IMG/VR virus record: IMGVR_UViG_3300011894_000040
Coordinates: 1-6,835 of that record
Strand: one strand, 5' to 3'
DNA length: 6,835 nucleotides
Source: a virus
Position numbers and translations under genes: made by a program. The notes beneath the pieces are model-generated. The model searched no databases. It was not told where the DNA came from and saw nothing but the letters and a program-made list of their open reading frames with translations. How positions within the stretch are numbered: the stretch's first letter is position 1; each line of letters begins with the position of its first letter. Shown here piece after piece: positions 1 through 6,835 of this stretch.

Positions 1-77
1 AGATCAATTGTCTACTTCTAAAAAAACTGATACTGCACAGCCTCAGAATGCTAATCTTGATAACAAAGTTAAATTAG
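1..77. repeat. Terminal overlap, left copy (identical to 6759-6835); signature of a circular assembly
   Basis: Base-by-base reading shows agatcaattgtctacttctaaaaaaactgatactgcacagcctcagaatgctaatcttgataacaaagttaaattag at both ends. The reading frame of gI is continuous across the junction. Confidence 0.95.
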
Positions 78-547
78 ATGTTATACCGAAGGTATCCGAA
101 GAGGATTGCAGAAAAGGTGTAAATGTTCAAAAACCTGAATGTGTTGAATACTTTAACCGTCTAACTAAAAATGGTGAGTCTGTTGGTGTTGCTGTACAAC
201 AAGTAAGCTATGATCCGTCTAAGCCTTTTGAATCAGCCGAAAAGATACAAGAAACGGTTTCATATCAGGTTACTGCAAAGCCTGTATTGTCTGGTTGTAT
301 GACCGATCGTCACGGTAAGTTAGTTGGATATACTCAACAAGGTACAATTATTCATGGCCTCAATCAGTCCGATTGCAAACGTATAATTAAAGGAGATCGT
401 CCGTTTAATTACTTTGCTCAGCAGTCTGTACAACAACCTGTACAGCAAGCAGTTCAACAAGTTGCCACTAATCAGTCCTATCAGGCTAATAACTATGTTC
501 AGGAAGGCCTAGAACGTAATCCAGTGAATGGCGCGAACCAATTATGA
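1..547 (+). CDS. gI: Gene I (Zot/pI-like assembly protein), C-terminal part: continuation of the CDS that starts at 6091 (unique part 78-547, stop TGA 545-547)
   Basis: The frame of track ORF 8-547 equals the frame of 6091 after adding 6758. The TTG at 8 is internal, not a start. This part lies after the TM segment (6673-6738), so it is predicted periplasmic. It has 4 Cys and a [S/P/A]VQQ x3 repeat (12-nt units at 428-463). Confidence 0.85.
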   Translation, partial: DQLSTSKKTDTAQPQNANLDNKVKLDVIPKVSEEDCRKGVNVQKPECVEYFNRLTKNGESVGVAVQQVSYDPSKPFESAEKIQETVSYQVTAKPVLSGCMTDRHGKLVGYTQQGTIIHGLNQSDCKRIIKGDRPFNYFAQQSVQQPVQQAVQQVATNQSYQANNYVQEGLERNPVNGANQL

Positions 548-571
548 ATTTCTTCCCTCTGATCACAAAAT

Positions 572-692
572 CCGTCTCTTCGATGTGACGTTGCGTCTTA
601 AAGAAGTGTCTTCAGGGGAATTGAGACACATCGAGACAGTCTATTGATTTACCGTATAATATGAGTGTCTCAAGGCGTAGTCTAGACACTTC
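572..692. promoter_or_regulatory. Array of GTCT/AGAC-based motifs (candidate operator or iteron cluster)
   Basis: GTCTC 574, GTCTT 595, GTGTCTT 605, GAGACAC 623, GAGACAG 633, GTCTA 639, GTGTCTC 665, GTCTAGAC 680-687 (perfect palindrome), AGACAGTCT 634-642 (palindrome). The longer form TTGAGACAC / GTGTCTCAA recurs at 621-629, 665-673 and 883-891. About 10 copies in 120 bp, against roughly 1 expected by chance. Confidence 0.5.
633..660 (+). promoter_or_regulatory. Candidate sigma70 promoter: -35 GAGACA (633-638), 16-nt spacer, -10 TATAAT (655-660)
   Basis: Perfect -10 hexamer, 4/6 -35 at correct spacing. The -35 is embedded in the GAGACA motif array. It would transcribe the 664-892 element and the ORF at 912. 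Confidence 0.45.
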
Positions 693-892
693 GACATGAT
701 GATATGTGAACGTTCAGAATGTTTACTGGAGTTTGGAAGGAAAACGTGATTGCAGCGGTGCCGTAAGCGAGCACGACGCACATGCATAGTGTCGTAGGCA
801 CCGCAAAAGGTAAGTGGCTGTAAAATGGATAGGAAATTTCTGAAGGTAGAGAGCTTATCACTTAAGATGTGTTTATCTCGCCTTGAGACACT
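664..892 (+). other. About 230-nt structured element closed by a perfect 14-bp inverted repeat (ssDNA structure or RNA leader)
   Basis: AGTGTCTCAAGGCG (664-677) is the exact reverse complement of CGCCTTGAGACACT (879-892). An internal hairpin pairs GCGGTGCC (755-762) with GGCACCGC (797-804), with an inner stem ACGAC/GTCGT and an ATGCAT loop. No convincing ORF inside (only 12- and 17-codon fragments). Confidence 0.55.
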
Positions 893-911
893 TAAAAATA
901 AGGGGTATTTG

Positions 912-1052
912 ATGGCTGTTTGGCAATTTGTTAAAGATAACTTTGGGACTTTTTGGTTTCTTTTTATGGGCATCTTCTTTTTAGTAAGAACGTTTTTTTG
1001 GCTTATTCGTCAGCTTCGATACCAAAAACATGATGATCAATATATCCCTTGA
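912..1052 (+). CDS. Small hydrophobic membrane protein, 46 aa (MAVWQFVKDNFGTFWFLFMGIFFLVRTFFWLIRQLRYQKHDDQYIP)
   Basis: In frame with track ORF 825-1052. I prefer the ATG at 912 because of the SD AGGGG (901-905) 6 nt upstream. It has one Phe/Trp-rich TM segment followed by basic residues. The ATG at 825 is an alternative start with no visible SD. Confidence 0.5.
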   Translation: MAVWQFVKDNFGTFWFLFMGIFFLVRTFFWLIRQLRYQKHDDQYIP

Positions 1053-1159
1053 TTGGCATTTTATTACATCTCGAGTCAAGCCGGTGAGCTCGCCCTGGAA
1101 TCAAAAAAATGAATAAAATCAACACTTATGATTTTTTATAGATTGGCAAAATATTACAT
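1051..1159 (+). repeat. Pair of 19-bp direct repeats GATTGGCA-nnnT-ATTACAT (1051-1069 and 1141-1159), 90 bp apart
   Basis: gattggcattttattacat versus gattggcaaaatattacat, 16/19 identical, differing only in a central ttt/aaa. Confidence 0.6.
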
Positions 1160-1176
1160 TTAATTACCCTTTTGAA

Positions 1177-1233
1177 GCTGAAATGATTTTATGAAAAACT
1201 GAAATTTTTCATAAAATTTTCAGCACATTTTTT
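1177..1233 (+). other. AT-rich imperfect hairpin followed by a T-run (terminator, packaging signal or minus-strand origin candidate)
   Basis: GCTGAAA (1177-1183) pairs with TTTCAGC (1218-1224). TTTTATGAAAAA (1187-1198) pairs with TTTTTCATAAAA (1205-1216). Loop is ctgaaa and the T6 run is at 1228-1233. Confidence 0.45.
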
Positions 1234-1242
1234 AGCGTCTGA

Positions 1243-1344
1243 AAGTTCGCATAATGTGATGCACAGATTATGTTACTAAGCCCCAGTGAGAAAATTACGA
1301 AGTCTCACGGGGCTTTTTAACATCAATCTGCATTATGCGAATTT
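1243..1344 (+). other. About 100-nt forked hairpin with dif-like arms: candidate ssDNA attP for XerCD (CTXphi-type)
   Basis: Paired blocks are 1246-1256/1331-1341 (TTCGCATAATG, 11 bp), 1264-1269/1325-1330, 1270-1275/1318-1323, 1278-1284/1309-1315 and 1286-1291/1303-1308. There is a 7-nt bulge TGATGCA (1257-1263). The top strand reads TTCGCATAA-n13-TTATGTTAC. The complement of the bottom strand reads TTCGCATAA-TGCAGA-TTGATGTTAAA. Confidence 0.6.
1278..1318 (+). terminator. Rho-independent terminator candidate (apical part of the forked hairpin)
   Basis: AAGCCCC-A-GTGAGA / TCTCAC-GGGGCTT stem, 11-nt loop, then TTTTT (1314-1318). Lies downstream of the ORF at 912-1052. Confidence 0.45.
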
Positions 1345-1350
1345 GAAAGG

Positions 1351-1400
1351 TTGGGGGAGTCCACGTCTTCTAATGGTGGACTCTAGTCCGAAATTTCGGA
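1351..1400 (+). other. Plus-strand (rolling-circle) origin core with predicted gpII nick site between T1371 and A1372
   Basis: TTGGGGGAGTCCACGTCTTCTAATGGTGGACTCTAGTCCGAAATTTCGGA aligns almost base for base with the f1/M13 origin TTGGAGTCCACGTTCTTTAATAGTGGACTCTTGTTCCAAACTGGAACA (recalled from memory). The hairpin pairs GAGTCCAC (1357-1364) with GTGGACTC (1376-1383). It is followed by the perfect 14-bp palindrome TCCGAAATTTCGGA (1387-1400), in the position of the f1 TGTTCCA/TGGAACA repeat. Confidence 0.85.
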
Positions 1401-1404
1401 ATTT

Positions 1405-1617
1405 TTATAGATCTTTTGCGTTTCTTACAACTACTTTTCCATGTGCTGATATCTCAACATTTTCTATAGCTTGATCAAGGATGATGTGTACAAGCTCACT
1501 ATCCTTGATCGGCTGTAGATTTTTATTGATCAGAATTTTATTGAGCTCTACACACTTCTTTCGTAGAGATTCTTGCTCTTTGTCATTTAAACGAACTGTT
1601 ACTGCCATTTTCGTCAC
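1405..1617 (-). CDS. Ribbon-helix-helix (CopG/Arc-like) transcriptional regulator candidate, 67-70 aa
   Basis: This is the only convincing minus-strand ORF. AVTVRLNDKEQESLRKKCVEL fits beta-strand plus helix A, and DSELVHIILDQAIEN fits helix B of RHH proteins. The track start at 1617 is GTG; the ATG at 1608 (MAVTVRL...) is equally plausible. It is divergent from gII, as repressors of temperate inoviruses are. Confidence 0.5.
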   Translation of the reverse strand: MTKMAVTVRLNDKEQESLRKKCVELNKILINKNLQPIKDSELVHIILDQAIENVEISAHGKVVVRNAKDL

Positions 1618-1737
1618 ATTTTCGGGTTATTAACTTGCATACAATATTACTTGTATATCTGTTATATGTGCTTGCTATTCATGTGTAATTGTATTAAATT
1701 CCGCTTAATGTTATTTGTATACATGCGTAATTAGCCC
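1618..1737. promoter_or_regulatory. Divergent control region between the RHH gene and gII
   Basis: AT-rich. It contains the inverted repeat ATACAA-n6-TTGTAT (1639-1656) and the TGTATACA palindrome (1716-1723). A minus-strand promoter candidate has -35 TTACAC (complement of 1683-1688) and -10 TATAAC (complement of 1661-1666) with a 16-nt spacer. A plus-strand candidate has TTGCTA (1672-1677) and TTAAAT (1694-1699). All are weak calls. Confidence 0.3.
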
Positions 1738-2961
1738 ATGCTAGATCATATTTGCATAAATGCGCCTTTTGAATCCAGCTTCTACTCAGTAGATGCGGAA
1801 GGGCGTTATTTTTTTGTAGATATCGATCTTCACAGTATAGAAATACCGCTTGCTTCTCGTTCTGTTCATAAGAATGACGATGGTTCAATTTCTGCTGCTG
1901 CGTTATTCCATCCGTTTGAGTCGGTTCCGACTCATTACACTGGTATGGCAATGAAAGTTTTTTTTGATTCTTCGTATGAACCTTTTGTACAGATCAAGGC
2001 TTCTCCTGCGAAATTGCTGCAAGGGCATAATGTCTTTGGCAGCGACAACATAGAGCAGGGTGCTATGGAAATGATCGGCTTCTTACATGAAGCTTATCCG
2101 CTTCTTGCAAGGATGCTAGATTGGCCTCGTGCATGGGTTTCACATATTGATGTGACTTACTCAGTACGATTGAAAGACCAGAACACAGCTAAAAAAGTTT
2201 TGGATTTCTTGAGCAATGTCAGCAATGGCCAGACTCGTTTAAGTAACAAGCGTTTCGACAGTTCAGTATATTGGGGAGGTCAGACTTCAAGACTTGTGAA
2301 TCACAAGTGTTATATGAAGCATGACGAATTTATCGCTCAATTTGAGGAGTATAAGCAACTTGCAAAGAAGAACGATAAAGCAGCTCAACGAGTTGTTGAT
2401 GTCATGTCCAATTCGGATCTGATTAACTGGACTGTCGGTCTTTTACGTTTTGAATCACGTTTAAAAAAACGTTGGCTTGAACGTAATGGAATTCCTACCA
2501 ATCTCTTTGATTTAATTAAGTTTCAACGTTCCAATCCAAATTTACTTCAAACACTCTGGACTAAAGCTACTCATAGCATTTTTGATGCCTTACGAGGTCA
2601 AACTATGAAATTAACAGACGATACTAGTGTTCTTGAAGCTATCCAACGATCTGATGTTGTTTTAACCAAATCTGGTAAAGCTTCCCCAACTAAAGTACGT
2701 AATTTATTTGCCATGTATTGTCTTATCCGCGAAAAGGGATTTGATGAAGTTAAAACGACTTATGGCAAGTCTCAATTTCACAATCTAATAGCCCAGTTAT
2801 GTGCTGTACAAGGTCTTAATAAAGGTATCTTGCAGAACTTACATACAGGCAATGCCAACAATATTATTCCGTTTATTAAGTTCGTAGACATAGATTTCAA
2901 TCAACAATTGCCAGATTGGTACGAAGAGCCAGTTTCGCAGTTCAACTACAAAATTGCATAG
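1738..2961 (+). CDS. gII: Replication initiation endonuclease gpII (Ff-type rolling-circle initiator), 407 aa
   Basis: Collinear blocks match M13 gpII as recalled. HPFESVPTHYTGMAMKVF / VQIKASPAKLLQGHNVFG matches HPFESLPTHYSGIAFKIY / VEIKASPAKVLQGHNVFG. LSNVSNGQT matches LRNVSNGQT, and GLLRFESRLKKRWL matches GLVRFEARIKTRYL. NIIPFIKFVDIDFNQQLPDWYEEPV matches NVVPLVRFINVDFSSQRPDWYNEPV, and both proteins end in KIA. Tyr192 (tat 2311-2313, in CYMKH) aligns with M13 Tyr197 (AYLKH). Confidence 0.95.
   Translation: MLDHICINAPFESSFYSVDAEGRYFFVDIDLHSIEIPLASRSVHKNDDGSISAAALFHPFESVPTHYTGMAMKVFFDSSYEPFVQIKASPAKLLQGHNVFGSDNIEQGAMEMIGFLHEAYPLLARMLDWPRAWVSHIDVTYSVRLKDQNTAKKVLDFLSNVSNGQTRLSNKRFDSSVYWGGQTSRLVNHKCYMKHDEFIAQFEEYKQLAKKNDKAAQRVVDVMSNSDLINWTVGLLRFESRLKKRWLERNGIPTNLFDLIKFQRSNPNLLQTLWTKATHSIFDALRGQTMKLTDDTSVLEAIQRSDVVLTKSGKASPTKVRNLFAMYCLIREKGFDEVKTTYGKSQFHNLIAQLCAVQGLNKGILQNLHTGNANNIIPFIKFVDIDFNQQLPDWYEEPVSQFNYKIA
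2605..2961 (+). CDS. gX: gpX equivalent: in-frame internal translation product of gII, 118 aa
   Basis: The ATG at 2605 (Met290 of gpII) sits at the position homologous to the M13 gX start (MKLTDDTSVLEAIQ versus MNIYDDSAVLDAIQ). It is preceded by GAGG (2594-2597) with 7-nt spacing. Confidence 0.7.
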   Translation: MKLTDDTSVLEAIQRSDVVLTKSGKASPTKVRNLFAMYCLIREKGFDEVKTTYGKSQFHNLIAQLCAVQGLNKGILQNLHTGNANNIIPFIKFVDIDFNQQLPDWYEEPVSQFNYKIA

Positions 2962-2969
2962 GTGAGCAA

Positions 2970-3305
2970 ATGAACAATTCACAACATCCGATTATGACAG
3001 TTACAGGCATCCGTAAAGCTGCTGGCGACTTTCAGGACGATAAAGGCAAAACAATCGAGTTCTCAAACACGGTTGTAACTGTATTACAGAATTACTCTGA
3101 GCGTGAGCTTGAACAAGGTGCAATCGGATTCAAATCTACCGATTACAAAATCAAAGGCGCTCAGTTCTTTAATGATTACATGCATCAGAAGCTACCAGCC
3201 GAGGCTGCAATGATCTTTGATTGGGATTTCACGGGCAAACAGCCAAAGGCTGTGTTGGTTGCGCTAGATTTCAATGCGAAGAAACAGGAAGTTAAACCTC
3301 TATGA
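2970..3305 (+). CDS. ssDNA-binding protein candidate (gV position), 111 aa
   Basis: SD AGGTGA (2960-2965) precedes the ATG at 2970; the upstream part of track ORF 2916 overlaps the gII end and is discounted. It lies immediately after gII/gX as in Ff. The motif DKGKTIEFSNT resembles the QGKPYSLNE (M13 gpV) and KGNPYTFQE (Pf3 SSB) DNA-binding wing as recalled. Similarity is weak, so the call is mainly positional. Confidence 0.55.
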   Translation: MNNSQHPIMTVTGIRKAAGDFQDDKGKTIEFSNTVVTVLQNYSERELEQGAIGFKSTDYKIKGAQFFNDYMHQKLPAEAAMIFDWDFTGKQPKAVLVALDFNAKKQEVKPL

Positions 3306-3457
3306 TCAACATAAATCATTTTCAATCAGTTGTTTGCGCGGATTGTGGCGTTAAGTTTAAACCAGCATCACGATATTTAGAGTTGGGTGCTCACAAACCA
3401 CATTGCACACAAATAAGAGAAGAAACGGAAGAAAAACCTGTACAAACAAAGGCATAA
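3302..3457 (+). CDS. Small CxxC...HxxxC zinc-finger-like protein A, 51 aa (MININHFQSVVCADCGVKFKPASRYLELGAHKPHCTQIREETEEKPVQTKA)
   Basis: Not in the ORF track (too short). The ATG at 3302 overlaps the gV-like stop (ATGA coupling), and AGGAAG lies at 3286-3291. It has a CxxC-x15-HxxxC motif and an acidic/basic tail. It is paralogous in pattern to the ORF at 3514. Confidence 0.5.
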   Translation: MININHFQSVVCADCGVKFKPASRYLELGAHKPHCTQIREETEEKPVQTKA

Positions 3458-3464
3458 ATATACC

Positions 3465-3492
3465 GTTTCGCATAATGTATAATATGTTAAAA
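3465..3492 (+). other. Near-canonical 28-bp dif-like XerC/XerD site (GTTTCGCATAA-TGTATA-ATATGTTAAAA)
   Basis: 24/28 identical to E. coli dif GGTGCGCATAA-TGTATA-TTATGTTAAAT (9/11 XerC arm, 6/6 central, 9/11 XerD arm). The XerC arm plus first central bases (TTCGCATAATGT) are identical to 1246-1257. The same bases also contain TGTATAAT (3476-3483), an extended -10. Confidence 0.75.
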
Positions 3493-3513
3493 ATCAACAA
3501 CTTAGGTGATTTT

Positions 3514-3627
3514 ATGATTAAAAAGATAACACCAATGATGGGGGATAATCAAGTGGAATGTCCTAAATGTTATTCGTATTTTCACCGCAAATATTTGGCT
3601 TTTCACATGTCTAAGTGTGAAGGCTAA
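3514..3627 (+). CDS. Small CxxC...HxxxC zinc-finger-like protein B, 37 aa (MIKKITPMMGDNQVECPKCYSYFHRKYLAFHMSKCEG)
   Basis: SD AGGTGA (3504-3509) precedes the ATG at 3514. The upstream part of track ORF 3403 starts at TTG and reads through the dif-like site, so it is discounted. It has a CxxC-x11-HxxxC motif and shares V.C..C...F...(R/K)YL...H...C with protein A. Confidence 0.5.
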   Translation: MIKKITPMMGDNQVECPKCYSYFHRKYLAFHMSKCEG

Positions 3628-3636
3628 CTGGGGATT

Positions 3637-3852
3637 ATGAGTATGCAGATTGATGATTGCACAGCAACAACGGTAATCAATGGGGTCAATTACTGCGTAC
3701 TCGTCATACATCAACAAAGCTGGCTAGACGAACTCAACAATTTAACAGTTGTCCAAGTTGGTCTATTACTGTCTAGCACAGCGTTGATTTGGTACGTTGC
3801 TTGGGGCATACGTGCTGCTTTAGACCTACTTGGACATGATCATGAGGATTAA
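3637..3852 (+). CDS. Membrane protein sharing the major coat protein's C-terminal motif, 69-71 aa; candidate minor or cap coat protein
   Basis: It has a C-terminal TM (VVQVGLLLSSTALIWYVAWGI). YVAWGIRAALDLL (3793-3831) matches YVGWGIRRALSLL of gVIII (4075-4113) at 10/13 residues. There is no signal peptide and the tail is acidic (GHDHED). The ATG at 3643 has better spacing to GGGGA (3630-3634) than the ATG at 3637. Confidence 0.6.
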   Translation: MSMQIDDCTATTVINGVNYCVLVIHQQSWLDELNNLTVVQVGLLLSSTALIWYVAWGIRAALDLLGHDHED

Positions 3853-3855
3853 CAC

Positions 3856-4119
3856 ATGGAAAATAATCAACAACCTCTACAAGCTACTGATAACACCAAA
3901 AAGGCTGTTACTGCCGTAAAACGCGCAGCTATGACTGCTGGTGTTGTAATGGCAACTACTGCTGCGGCATTTGCTGAAGATGGGGGCACTTCGATTGATT
4001 TAACCACTGGCTTGGCTGGTGTTGCGATTATTGCGGGTCTTCTTTCTGTAGGTAGCCTCAAGGCTGTACCAACATATGTTGGTTGGGGTATTCGTCGAGC
4101 GTTATCACTTCTTCGCTAA
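3856..4119 (+). CDS. gVIII: Major coat protein precursor (gVIII type), 87 aa, predicted mature 47 aa
   Basis: SD GAGGA (3844-3848) lies 7 nt upstream. The leader ends in AFA with cleavage predicted before EDGG. The mature protein has an acidic N-terminus (E, D, D), a hydrophobic core (GLAGVAIIAGLLSVG) and a basic C-terminus (K, R, R, R). It is followed directly by a strong terminator, as in Ff. Confidence 0.85.
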   Translation: MENNQQPLQATDNTKKAVTAVKRAAMTAGVVMATTAAAFAEDGGTSIDLTTGLAGVAIIAGLLSVGSLKAVPTYVGWGIRRALSLLR

Positions 4120-4136
4120 TTGATAAAACAAAAAAA

Positions 4137-4182
4137 AGCTGGGAGGAGCGCACAGCTGTACGCACCTCACCCAGCTTTTTTT
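4137..4182 (+). terminator. Rho-independent terminator after the coat gene
   Basis: AGCTGGG (4137-4143) pairs with CCCAGCT (4170-4176), with further AGG/CCT and GCG/CGC pairs. It is followed by T7 (4176-4182) and preceded by an A-run, so it may work in both directions. Confidence 0.85.
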
Positions 4183-4201
4183 ATAACTGGAGTAAAGCGA
4201 A

Positions 4202-4264
4202 ATGACCGTCTATTACATCATTGTGGTGGCTCTTGCGTTGTGGATCGTCTTGTCGGGGAAATAG
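4202..4264 (+). CDS. 20-aa hydrophobic mini-ORF (MTVYYIIVVALALWIVLSGK), candidate gVII/gIX-like minor coat or membrane peptide
   Basis: Not in the ORF track. GGAG (4189-4192) lies upstream. The stop TAG (4262-4264) is 1 nt before the gIII ATG at 4266, which suggests translational coupling. It is a single TM-length hydrophobic stretch. Confidence 0.4.
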   Translation: MTVYYIIVVALALWIVLSGK

Positions 4265-4265
4265 T

Positions 4266-5812
<1,547 letters not shown>

Positions 5813-5813
<1 letters not shown>

Positions 5814-6091
5814 TGCTTAAGTTTCTCGCAAAGTTAACAGAATGGTTATTAAAAAACTCGGTTCAAAAGGTGCTTACTGGGGCGGGTTTATCGGTGGTTT
5901 CTTACCTGTCTGTAGTAGCTGTAATAAGGGTCGCTTTTAACAGTTTAATTAATTCAATTTATAGCGTTTCTGCTGATCTTCTTAATTTTATGGGTATTTG
6001 TGGGATCGATTACGCTTTAAGTGGTTTCGTTTCTGTAGCTGTTTTCTTGATGAGTATTAAACAAGGCAGCTTATCTTTGAGGAAAAAATAA
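5813..6091 (+). CDS. Small multi-TM membrane protein at the gVI position, immediately upstream of the Zot-like gene (as Ace is upstream of Zot in CTXphi), 92 aa
   Basis: The ATG at 5813 overlaps the gIII stop (TAATG), with GGAG at 5802-5805. Its own stop overlaps the gI start (TAATG at 6089-6093). It has two to three hydrophobic segments. The call is positional. Confidence 0.6.
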
Positions 6092-6835
6092 TGAGTCAAT
6101 CTGCTGGCGGTACGTTTCGACTTGTTTGCGGTCAAATTGGCGCGGGTAAATCATATCTGTATGTTAAACAAGTAGAAGAAGAAATTAAAAAAAGTGGCAA
6201 ATATAAAAAGATTTATTCAAACATTCGTGCACATGCTGAATTAGCTGAAGGTATTACACCACTTCCAGACGATTGGCGAGAATGTGAACCTGATAGCCTT
6301 GTAATTATTGACGAGGTACAGAAACATGAGAAGTTTAGTAAACACTTCTCCAGTCGTCGTGATAGCGAGATTGTAGACCTTACAATGATTCGACATCAGC
6401 GTTTAGATTTATGGCTTATCAGCCCCAATCCAGCGCTAGTAAACAGTGATGTGCGGAACCTTGTGACACAGTATTTCTGGCTTGAAGTTGTAGGTGCTAA
6501 AACAACGAAATGCTATTGTTTTACGAAGGTTTATAACAGTATTACCAAATCAATTAAATTACAGGCTTATGATGAGTTTGTTTATACAATCGAAGAGAAG
6601 TATCACAAACTTTATAAATCTACTGAAGACGGTATAGCATCAGGTCGTAACTATAATTTTAATGTTAAGTTATGGGGCTTTGTAGGTGGTTTGGTTGTTG
6701 TAGTTATTGTGGCTTGTTTTCTTGTAGGTTTTTTTGCAAAGGGGACAAAAACAAAAAAAGATCAATTGTCTACTTCTAAAAAAACTGATACTGCACAGCC
6801 TCAGAATGCTAATCTTGATAACAAAGTTAAATTAG
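6091..6835 (+). CDS. gI: Gene I (Zot/pI-like assembly ATPase), N-terminal part; the CDS continues across the circular junction to 547 (404 aa in total)
   Basis: Absent from the ORF track because it has no stop inside the window. SD GAGGA (6079-6083) is present. Walker A is GQIGAGKS (6130-6153; M13 pI has GKLGAGKT). Walker B-like is LVIIDEVQ (M13 has LLVLDECG). The TM segment is LWGFVGGLVVVVIVACFLVGFF. Confidence 0.9.
   Translation, partial: MSQSAGGTFRLVCGQIGAGKSYLYVKQVEEEIKKSGKYKKIYSNIRAHAELAEGITPLPDDWRECEPDSLVIIDEVQKHEKFSKHFSSRRDSEIVDLTMIRHQRLDLWLISPNPALVNSDVRNLVTQYFWLEVVGAKTTKCYCFTKVYNSITKSIKLQAYDEFVYTIEEKYHKLYKSTEDGIASGRNYNFNVKLWGFVGGLVVVVIVACFLVGFFAKGTKTKKDQLSTSKKTDTAQPQNANLDNKVKL
6759..6835. 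repeat. Terminal overlap, right copy (identical to 1-77)
   Basis: Same 77-nt string as 1-77. Position p at the left end corresponds to p+6758. Confidence 0.95.

Follow-up and report, generated by a model that had tools for sequence, protein, structure and literature searches.

A conserved plus-strand hairpin and a movable structured module in the intergenic region of an Acinetobacter filamentous phage

The inverted repeat downstream of gI

The IMG/VR virus record IMGVR_UViG_3300011894_000040 comprises 6,835 nucleotides of DNA (the window, positions 1 to 6,835 of the record), in which we analyzed a structured element of about 230 nt lying between the gene gI and a small open reading frame (ORF) for a membrane protein. 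The first 77 bases of the window recur at its end, so that the sequence closes to a circle of 6,758 nt; the window is a complete circular genome of an Acinetobacter inovirus. The gene order is that of the integrative inovirus type without a secretin gene. The region studied is the non-coding stretch from the end of gI (547) to the plus origin and the start of gII (1738), and its structures are all on the plus strand. The gene layout thereby confirms the setting proposed in an initial annotation of the sequence, which had placed the element in the gI-to-origin intergenic space of an inovirus.

The two arms of a perfect 14-bp inverted repeat, AGTGTCTCAAGGCG (664-677) and CGCCTTGAGACACT (879-892), are separated by 201 nt and lie where the initial annotation had read them. 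A repeat of this kind greatly exceeds chance expectation: the 14-mer occurs a single time per strand of the window, and 0.42 matches with up to three mismatches would be expected at random. Folding the segment 655-915 both as DNA and as RNA, as had been proposed, gave structures far more stable than those of shuffled sequences, with -38.5 kcal/mol (z = -4.5) for DNA and -86 kcal/mol (z = -5.3) for RNA; none of the 200 shuffles folded as well in either case. The minus strand of the region folds too, about 19 kcal/mol more weakly as RNA. The internal hairpin noted at 755-804 is also present, formed by GCGGTGCC (755-762) pairing with GGCACCGC (797-804), and its inner stem carries two compensatory changes in relatives. 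The same arrangement occurs in the related contigs L096, L124, L122, and L133 (L numbers are our handles for related contigs and loci) and is therefore no assembly artefact.

Comparison with relatives revealed no conserved ORF between the arms, in line with the earlier view that the interval contains no credible one. A 75-aa in-frame extension starting at 825 was rejected as coding, as it runs into stops in L133 and L122 and has no homologues, and so was a 110-codon minus-strand frame, which is reduced to 76-96 codons in relatives and matches no family. Single-nucleotide indels in the corresponding region of L022 and L130 break every reading frame. The suggested search of Rfam, run with release 15 (including 6S RNA) on the whole window at E-values up to 10, returned no family overlapping 548-1052, and a phage database gave no match for 548-1048.

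The repeat had been taken for the boundary of a self-contained element, which the relatives contradict. Its left arm is part of a block found without change in about 40 related phages. The full right arm is found only in the lineage of the window and in L133, with 9 nt of it in the A. baumannii plasmid pC9_1; of the 35 contigs with the left arm, just one also has the right arm, namely L096, which is nearly identical to the window and belongs to its lineage. The element is a composite, in which a hairpin strand (left arm) is followed by a movable insert and then by a second copy of a conserved sequence termed Block 1 (right arm). The features are as follows.

603-692, plus strand: module A, a two-helix hairpin of about 90 nt (RNAalifold consensus)
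603-611 with 684-692, plus strand: helix P1 of module A (RNAalifold)
621-629 with 665-673, plus strand: helix P2 of module A (RNAalifold)
612-620 (TCAGGGGAA) and 674-683 (GGCGTAGTCT), plus strand: conserved internal-loop strands
630-664, plus strand: variable terminal loop
606-629, plus strand: Block 1 (GTGTCTTCAGGGGAATTGAGACAC), the usual partner of the left arm, invariant in loci picked via Block 2, Zot or the small ORF
663-689, plus strand: Block 2 (GAGTGTCTCAAGGCGTAGTCTAGACAC), containing the left arm 664-677
655-660, plus strand: TATAAT, a -10-like hexamer at the 3' end of the terminal loop
697-868, plus strand: core, a structured non-coding module of about 170 nt
Within the core, plus strand: closing stem TGATGA/TTATCA, and stem 713-719 with 838-844
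729-754 and 805-835, plus strand: central region of the core, largely open (about 60% unpaired by ensemble pairing probabilities)
755-804, plus strand: apical GC-rich hairpin of the core
869-893, plus strand: degenerate second copy of Block 1, equivalent to an inverted copy of Block 2 ('2-prime', 2'), holding the right arm 879-892
901-905, plus strand: Shine-Dalgarno (SD) sequence AGGGG of the small ORF
912-1052, plus strand: gene for a 46-aa single-pass membrane protein, with ATG at 912

Module A, the core and the small ORF among relatives

Scanning viral contigs with the bare left-arm 14-mer was swamped by chance matches, and it also recovered about 35 true inovirus-like relatives. Because these first loci had been chosen by exact block matches, further loci were fetched via the Zot protein and via the small ORF, which offsets the selection bias. 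The conserved block is found on genome contigs of A. haemolyticus and A. geminorum, and the plasmid and assembly matches are from A. baumannii and other Acinetobacter. The intergenic region is mosaic among these relatives. The closest phage in GenBank, Acinetobacter phage M02, shares Rep (85%), 1049-1404 (76%) and 3458-3627 (87%) with the window and nothing of 548-1048, where it has an unrelated 134-nt module; it was also the sole match in a GenBank phage search with 548-1400, the alignment beginning only at 1049. We also noticed a 6,619-bp A. baumannii 'plasmid' record with a zot gene and module A (NZ_CP051873.1), which probably represents a related filamentous phage in its replicative form.

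In about 35 contigs, the segment corresponding to 545-697 is about 80% conserved even where most of the genome diverges. The spacer between Blocks 1 and 2 is variable in sequence and 32-34 nt long. With 28 sequences, the nested two-helix model has 99.8% of its cells paired and four covarying pairs; with 17 sequences, 98.4% of the cells are paired and 10 of the 18 pairs are changed on both sides. Not one of 500 shuffles did as well in either set, and slid controls of the test collapse. The covariance analysis that had been recommended for the stems thus gives strong support to the hairpin 603-692. It does not extend to the two arms of the 14-bp repeat, which are unchanged in the two lineages having them, unlike the covarying hairpin and the apical hairpin of the core. 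In locus L150, picked independently of the hairpin sequence, a G-C pair of the inner helix is replaced by A-T, a compensatory change. In L151 and L152, whose Zot is about 30% identical, both helices are swapped for other complementary sequence, and the internal-loop strands TCAGGGGAATTG and CAAGGCGTAGTCT are retained. As the nested hairpin covaries and its loop strands are kept, the left arm pairs with 621-629 across the group, GGCG (674-677) lying unpaired in a conserved loop.

A covariance model of the hairpin finds exactly one copy per phage, on the plus strand only, and none in M02, M13, L143, L146, L148, or L149. Of 17 loci selected for similarity in Zot, 13 have module A. It mostly lies shortly after gI, and mostly the ribosome-binding site of a small cargo ORF follows within about 10 nt. 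The hairpin motif, consisting of two variable helices around an invariant asymmetric internal loop, is previously undescribed and marks a large group of phages. The Rep and coat genes of phages sharing the Blocks have little similarity at the DNA level, and the invariance of the Blocks across very different Zot proteins suggests that they are recognized by a host factor or by some other strongly conserved one. Two other models of the Blocks were discarded. Two separate local hairpins show no covariation and are broken by L021, L151, and L152. An operator with palindromes flanking a promoter disagrees with the covariation, which ties the 5' half of Block 1 to the 3' half of Block 2 some 80 nt away.

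The core is a separate unit. In L114, whose Zot is 86% identical, Block 2 is joined directly to the SD sequence and a homologue of the small ORF, which identifies 698-899 of the window as an insert. This insert is missing from L114 and from more than 30 other relatives; a look for homologous phages without the element, one of the checks put forward at the outset, has hence turned up many. The core is found in only five inovirus lineages, in constant orientation and in four arrangements: A-core-2'-ORF in the window lineage and L133; A-core-2'(partial)-B in plasmid pC9_1, where it is joined straight to module B, a conserved stretch further downstream; A-54 nt-core-B in L022, L123, and L125, with a different spacer of 54 nt; and A-ORF-core-B in L130, with the core downstream of the small ORF. 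Its sources are five viral contigs, one metagenome contig and one plasmid prophage, always in inovirus intergenic regions and once per genome. Between phages with gI DNA identities of roughly 65-85%, the core is 85-96% identical. The consensus fold shows two compensatory changes, both in the apical hairpin, where L130 has TAC/GTA for CAC/GTG and GCGC/GCGC for GCGA/TCGT, and four wobble-type (G-U) changes, which are tolerated on the plus strand only. A conserved TAAAAT (821-826) lies 16 nt past the apical stem, in the 3' part of the open region. A sigma-70 promoter within the 230-nt fold-back (TCGACA, 18 nt and CAGAAT, 691-720) was considered and rejected, as the -35 hexamer is not kept in L022 or L130.

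The second copy at 869-893 follows the layout of Block 1, with GTGTTT, 8 nt and TTGAGACAC in the place of GTGTCT, 9 nt and TTGAGACAC; the TTGAGACAC stretch is identical at 621-629 and 883-891. GTGTTTA (869-875) pairs with 683-689, and the second copy has CGCC in its middle, the complement of the GGCG loop of Block 2. Altogether, 14 contiguous bases of the second copy complement Block 2, four bases of the conserved internal loop among them, and because of this complementarity, folding predictions with DNA as well as RNA energies shift Block 2 from Block 1 to the second copy. With Block 1 included in the fold, the new pairing is favored by 5.6 kcal/mol (DNA) or 17.5 kcal/mol (RNA) with an ensemble probability of about 1.0, and Block 1 is modeled to fold back as a small local hairpin. 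The refolding is predicted only in the window and L133; for L131, L022, L130, L114, and L041, the predicted fold is still the family hairpin. The structure predicted for the window lineage and L133 is a rod of about 230 nt with the movable module as its tip and with stems at 664-677/879-892, 713-719/838-844, and 755-762/797-804. The second copy never occurs without the core, being full in these two lineages and reduced to 9 nt in pC9_1. Block 2 can pair with either Block 1 upstream or the second copy downstream, but not with both, which is reminiscent of the 1:2 versus 2:3 pairing of attenuators and riboswitches. Unlike in those systems, there is no ligand, leader peptide or terminator here, and the switch is predicted to be fully one-sided at equilibrium.

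The SD sequence and the 46-codon ORF were found as annotated. The ORF belongs to a family of single-pass membrane proteins of 40-60 aa in which a Trp and the C-terminal tail DD(D/E)QYIP are invariant and the hydrophobic stretch is followed by an Arg. A profile search collected 30 clusters, all from Acinetobacter and all unnamed, and the ORF has no match in Pfam, PHROGs, NCBIfam or PADLOC. The tail codons differ synonymously between lineages, and there is therefore selection on the protein. Most relatives with the ORF start it about 16-18 nt past Block 2 with the same SD-to-ATG geometry and without any fold-back; other phages have a different cargo ORF in the same slot. The ORF occurs without the core in L114, L018, L035, L038, L056, and others, and the core without an adjacent small ORF in pC9_1 and L022. 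As its family is restricted to Acinetobacter and mostly comes straight after the hairpin, the small ORF is one of the group's standard accessory genes instead of a moron peculiar to one lineage; that it lies next to the fold-back is incidental.

The tail of the protein is encoded at 1033-1049, and a different small ORF in the same slot of L033 ends in DENYPF. We take the tail DD(D/E)QYIP to resemble DDDIPF, the C-terminal tip of single-strand binding protein (SSB), of which it could be a membrane-tethered mimic. Around the end of the ORF, the repeated motif GATTGGCA(T/A)(T/A)(T/A)TATTACAT is found at 1051-1069 and 1141-1159, 90 nt apart, and also at 917-933. The small ORF ends within the first GATTGGCA...TATTACAT copy, which its stop codon overlaps. 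These motifs, which may be protein-binding sites, mark the start of module B, which is common even to M02. At the other end of the region, a CTCTGAT(T/C)AC motif lies near the gI stop (556-575; L001 3525-3545; L146, L148, and L149) in spite of differing hairpin modules downstream, and M02 has direct repeats of ACCAGGTATGAAC(C/T)AGGACTTT near its gI stop. This suggests that the gI-stop motif is a common joint for module exchange.

Plus origin, attP and other features of the genome

The remaining features of the genome are the following.

6091 across the junction to 547: gI, Zot-like
1.19 kb following gI: intergenic region
1405-1617, minus strand: small ribbon-helix-helix (RHH)-like gene, 70 aa, PHROG 5642
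1738-2961: Rep/gII (Pfam Phage_CRI and G2P_X_C)
3856-4119: coat gene gVIII
4266-5813: gIII
5813-6091: gVI

A gV-like gene and then several mini-ORFs lie downstream of Rep/gII. The sequence at 1356-1393 (GGAGTCCACGTCTTCTAATGGTGGACTC...) matches positions 5765-5802 of the Ff phages (M13/f1/fd), the 'origin of viral strand synthesis', with 81.6% identity over 38 nt, and is very likely the plus-strand nick hairpin of the phage. An inverted pair of dif-like sequences (1243-1256/1331-1344) surrounds a GC hairpin, with TTCGCATAATG at 1246-1256 and its complement at 1331-1341. The prophage in plasmid pC9_1 ends exactly there, reading AGTTCGCATAA, TAGAGA and TTATGTTAAAT in succession (L131, about 6615-6650). 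From this junction, we assign 1243-1344 as a CTX-type folded attP, and pC9_1, judged by its sequence, contains a filamentous prophage integrated at a plasmid dif-like site. The fold-back formed by 664-677 and 879-892 resembles the folded attP(+) of CTXphi in being a plus-strand structure of two inverted copies of a protein-recognized sequence, located downstream of zot in the cargo slot. Unlike in CTXphi, these arms are not dif-like, and the folded attP proper is the one assigned to 1243-1344. As the plus origin and attP are accounted for elsewhere, the packaging signal and the minus-strand origin are left to be placed.

A number of further observations were made on the same genome. At 1177-1224, there is a near-perfect AT-rich hairpin with perfect 13-bp arms, ATTTTATGAAAAA and TTTTTCATAAAAT, extended by GCTGAAA/TTTCAGC and identical in pC9_1; this hairpin, too, is a candidate packaging signal or minus origin. 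A second dif-like site, canonical in appearance, TTTCGCATAA TGTATA ATATGTTAAAA, is located at 3467-3495 between two mini-ORFs (3302-3457 and 3514-3627) with zinc-ribbon-like CxxC...H...C motifs, and is 85-94% conserved in many relatives. The near-identical prophage in L124 breaks at about 3478 and goes on in sequence similar to 1246-1342, as would result from recombination between the two Xer sites. Similar CxxC ORFs are found after module A in L151 and L152, and also in L146. The stretch 1405-1737, with the minus-strand RHH-like gene and repeated TTGTATA motifs upstream of it, is replaced by unrelated sequence in close relatives, e.g., L122, and looks like an exchangeable immunity region comparable to rstR of CTXphi. 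A purely hydrophobic ORF of 20 aa (MTVYYIIVVALALWIVLSGK) lies at 4202-4264 between the gVIII terminator and gIII. Within gIII, a long (Gly-Thr/Ser)n linker (5275-5420) is encoded by degenerate GGTACnGGTTCT-type repeats; such linkers are typical of the receptor-binding proteins of inoviruses.

Plus-strand signals and alternative explanations

Our tentatively preferred reading, in which our confidence falls somewhat short of even, is that the folds are cis-acting signals of the single-stranded plus strand, i.e., the virion DNA and the rolling-circle product, which serve complementary-strand priming and/or packaging and are no device for translational control. To our knowledge, no inovirus can do without a packaging signal and a complementary-strand origin, both located in this region. 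We favor plus-strand signals since both functions have to be provided here and the structures are plus-strand specific, since the Blocks are invariant despite divergent Zot and the core is exchanged independently of the neighboring gene, and since the layout of the core recalls the template of the M13 minus origin, a promoter-like single-stranded DNA recognized by RNA polymerase (PMC7948647). The conserved hairpin would then be the morphogenetic and/or complementary-strand signal of the group, and the movable module an accessory single-strand initiation signal like the Ff minus-strand origin. With its closing stem, open center, apical GC hairpin and TAAAAT, the core might be read by host RNA polymerase as a pre-opened promoter, on which the polymerase would lay a primer running toward gI. 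The long closing helix would steady the structure against coating by SSB, and the small ORF would be a separate, family-wide membrane protein gene. We infer that the 14-bp repeat is a lineage-specific remodeling of a phage DNA signal rather than a toxin switch.

Hairpin A (packaging signal) and hairpins B and C (minus origin) of Ff are likewise plus-strand hairpins between the last morphogenesis gene and the plus origin and gII. The plus origin is recognizably homologous to that of Ff, and Rep is of the same family (Phage_CRI). The stem, open region and apical stem of the core could mimic the promoter-like template described for the Ff minus origin (PMC7948647). Unlike in Ff, there is no sequence similarity to hairpins A-C, the conserved unit consists of two short helices around a conserved internal loop instead of one long stem, attP, small ORFs and other modules are interleaved, and the 230-nt rod is restricted to two lineages. 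Single-strand initiation (ssi) signals, such as G4-type origins and Frpo of the F plasmid, are portable, orientation-specific, structured plus-strand modules of about 150-250 nt, which are conserved and exchanged between replicons. The core is similarly portable, orientation-specific and structured, a likeness of layout, with TAAAAT (821-826) read off the sequence.

Several points weigh against this assignment. No homology in Rfam or in the phage database ties the folds (548-1048) to packaging or priming, and covariation is blind to the difference between plus-strand DNA and plus-sense RNA. The coupling of Block 2 to the SD sequence, the fixed loop of 32-34 nt and the enriched -10 hexamer fit a promoter or leader at least as well. 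If the hairpin is essential, its disruption by a second copy is hard to explain, except where the rod takes its place. The 14-nt arm is identical in the window and L133, but at 88% identity this has a chance of about 17% without selection. The core is known as just five sequence variants, so that support for its rod-like fold is thin. The minimum free energy (MFE) folds of the L022 and L130 cores differ from the rod of the window, and the conserved pairing of the core ends therefore depends only on the TGAT(G)A/T(T)ATCA stem and on lineage-specific flanking repeats, for which L130 may have a direct repeat of CCTT..CAATTG instead. The proposed promoter mimic shows no conservation at its -35-like positions. 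The initial annotation had offered the entire fold-back as a minus-strand origin and/or packaging signal. As drawn, it is not the essential signal of the family, because close relatives such as L114 lack the insert and the 230-nt fold-back is full in two lineages only; recast onto the covarying hairpin 603-692, the proposal is plausible.

The structures could alternatively act in RNA, which we consider unlikely, although it is the rival that we take most seriously. A promoter in the hairpin loop, with its -10 at 655-660 and a start at about 667, would usually give a short leader followed by the small ORF; in the window, it would give a 245-nt leader with 667-677 locked to 879-889, which would shield the mRNA from 5'-end-dependent decay or yield a stable RNA containing the core. 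The promoter-like TATAAT that the initial annotation had pointed out is indeed present as sequence: in a promoter consensus scan, it scores 10/12 together with TCGAGA 18 nt upstream, and both top-scoring promoter-like sites in 400-1800 use it. A -10-like hexamer (at least 5/6) is found at this position in 16 of 29 distinct loops versus about six expected from shuffles, an enrichment that is only suggestive because the sequences are related, and the loop length is fixed. The -35 is, however, weak and not conserved, and in L151 and L152, where the hairpin is retained, the loop measures 16 nt and lacks a -10. In nearly all genomes, the SD sequence lies 8-10 nt past Block 2 or the second copy, and the very stable RNA fold leaves it outside the helix. 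In pC9_1 and L022, the core directly follows the putative promoter, with the next small ORF further downstream, but in L130 it is located 3' of the ORF. There is a precedent in inovirus SW1, in which long structured untranslated regions control RNA stability (PMC4762005). Against this explanation, the covarying pairing between Blocks 1 and 2 would be impossible in an RNA starting at 667, a pattern scan found no terminator after the rod, and there is no Rfam match.

Somewhat less probable still, the second copy and the repeat might be functionless scars of module shuffling, left when core-bearing and ORF-bearing phages were joined. The Blocks would act as recombination joints, since they are short, invariant and quasi-palindromic (GTGTCT...AGACAC). 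The direct repeat of AGACACTT at 684-691 and 886-893 agrees with this, and so does the order AGACACTT, 7 nt, AGGGGTATTTGATG after 886, which mirrors the usual junction of Block 2 and the SD sequence in relatives. Also in agreement are the mere 9 nt of the arm joined straight to module B in pC9_1, the drift of the inner part of the repeat (869-875) in L133, and the clearly mosaic intergenic region. However, the CGCC of the arm complements the conserved loop of Block 2 and is lacking from Block 1, so that simple copying of Block 1 is insufficient. The second copy is never seen without the core, and a scar abolishing the hairpin in the thermodynamic ground state should be lost, yet it persists in two lineages that are 12% diverged. 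The small, hydrophobic ORF with a good SD sequence behind a long-range 5'-3' helix speaks for a cassette related to type I toxin-antitoxin systems or superinfection exclusion, a reading of the initial annotation; the fold-back leader would silence a toxic 46-aa membrane peptide until processing or antisense relief. In a read-through transcript, 897-915 could pair with 641-657, and hok/sok mRNAs similarly have a long-range 5'-3' helix in the leader before a hydrophobic ORF of roughly 50 aa. This proposal is very improbable and is not supported by the relatives: the ORF family is widespread without the fold-back, directly following the hairpin in most relatives that carry it, and core and ORF assort independently, whereas leader and ORF would be co-inherited in a hok/sok-like system. 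The repeat ends at 892, and the helix leaves the SD sequence (901-905), the start codon and any translational activator element free, unlike in hok/sok; the SD sequence is 84% and the AUG 86% unpaired in the DNA ensemble, and the SD sequence is unpaired in the RNA MFE fold of 655-915. Scanning 400-1800 for an antisense promoter-plus-terminator unit or antisense RNA gene found none; on the minus strand, only a 9/12 site at 684..656 without a terminator was seen, a pattern scan being weak evidence. The ORF has no homology to a known toxin family in Pfam, NCBIfam, PADLOC or PHROGs, and its conserved acidic tail DDDQYIP points to docking, not pore formation. Finally, a non-coding segment of about 230 nt with perfect 14-bp terminal inverted repeats has the appearance of a miniature inverted-repeat transposable element (MITE) inserted into the phage, an origin that is effectively refuted and the least credible of all. 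The left 'terminal repeat' is resident phage sequence, invariant in relatives without the insert. There is no flanking target-site duplication, as the sole direct repeat, AGACACTT, lies inside the inverted repeat. The core occurs once per genome in inovirus intergenic regions only, with no dispersed copies found, and its flanks differ in other lineages.

Returning to signals of the plus strand, a more specific version, which we regard as distinctly speculative, would make the core a portable single-stranded DNA mimic of an open promoter, comparable to 6S RNA and the M13 minus origin and exchanged as a plug-in complementary-strand origin. It would be docked on the group hairpin via the second strand copy, and strand exchange of Block 2 would toggle between the family-type signal and the 230-nt priming rod; the DDDQYIP protein could recruit SSB-binding replication proteins to the site of entry or assembly.

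Acinetobacter filamentous phages were first characterized only in 2024-2025 (PMC11209303, PMC12285184). A look-up of the terms intergenic, packaging signal, attP and hairpin found all of them absent from these two papers, and our search of the literature on Acinetobacter filamentous phages found no intergenic elements described. The hairpin and the core are undescribed, yet of a known kind, namely the structured intergenic signals of filamentous phages; the unusual twist compared with the known signals is the second partner strand together with the movable module. The analysis defines a hairpin motif and a separate movable module as well as the putative plus origin and CTX-type attP. Either outcome of the question of their function is useful to specialists and does not overturn current understanding. 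If the structures act in RNA instead, they would represent a new class of leaders or small RNAs governing the cargo slot of the phages. If the hairpin and the core are packaging and complementary-strand signals, they would provide minimal cis elements for Acinetobacter phagemids or transducing particles, and such signals would be exchanged as cassettes among these phages and remodeled by strand duplication.

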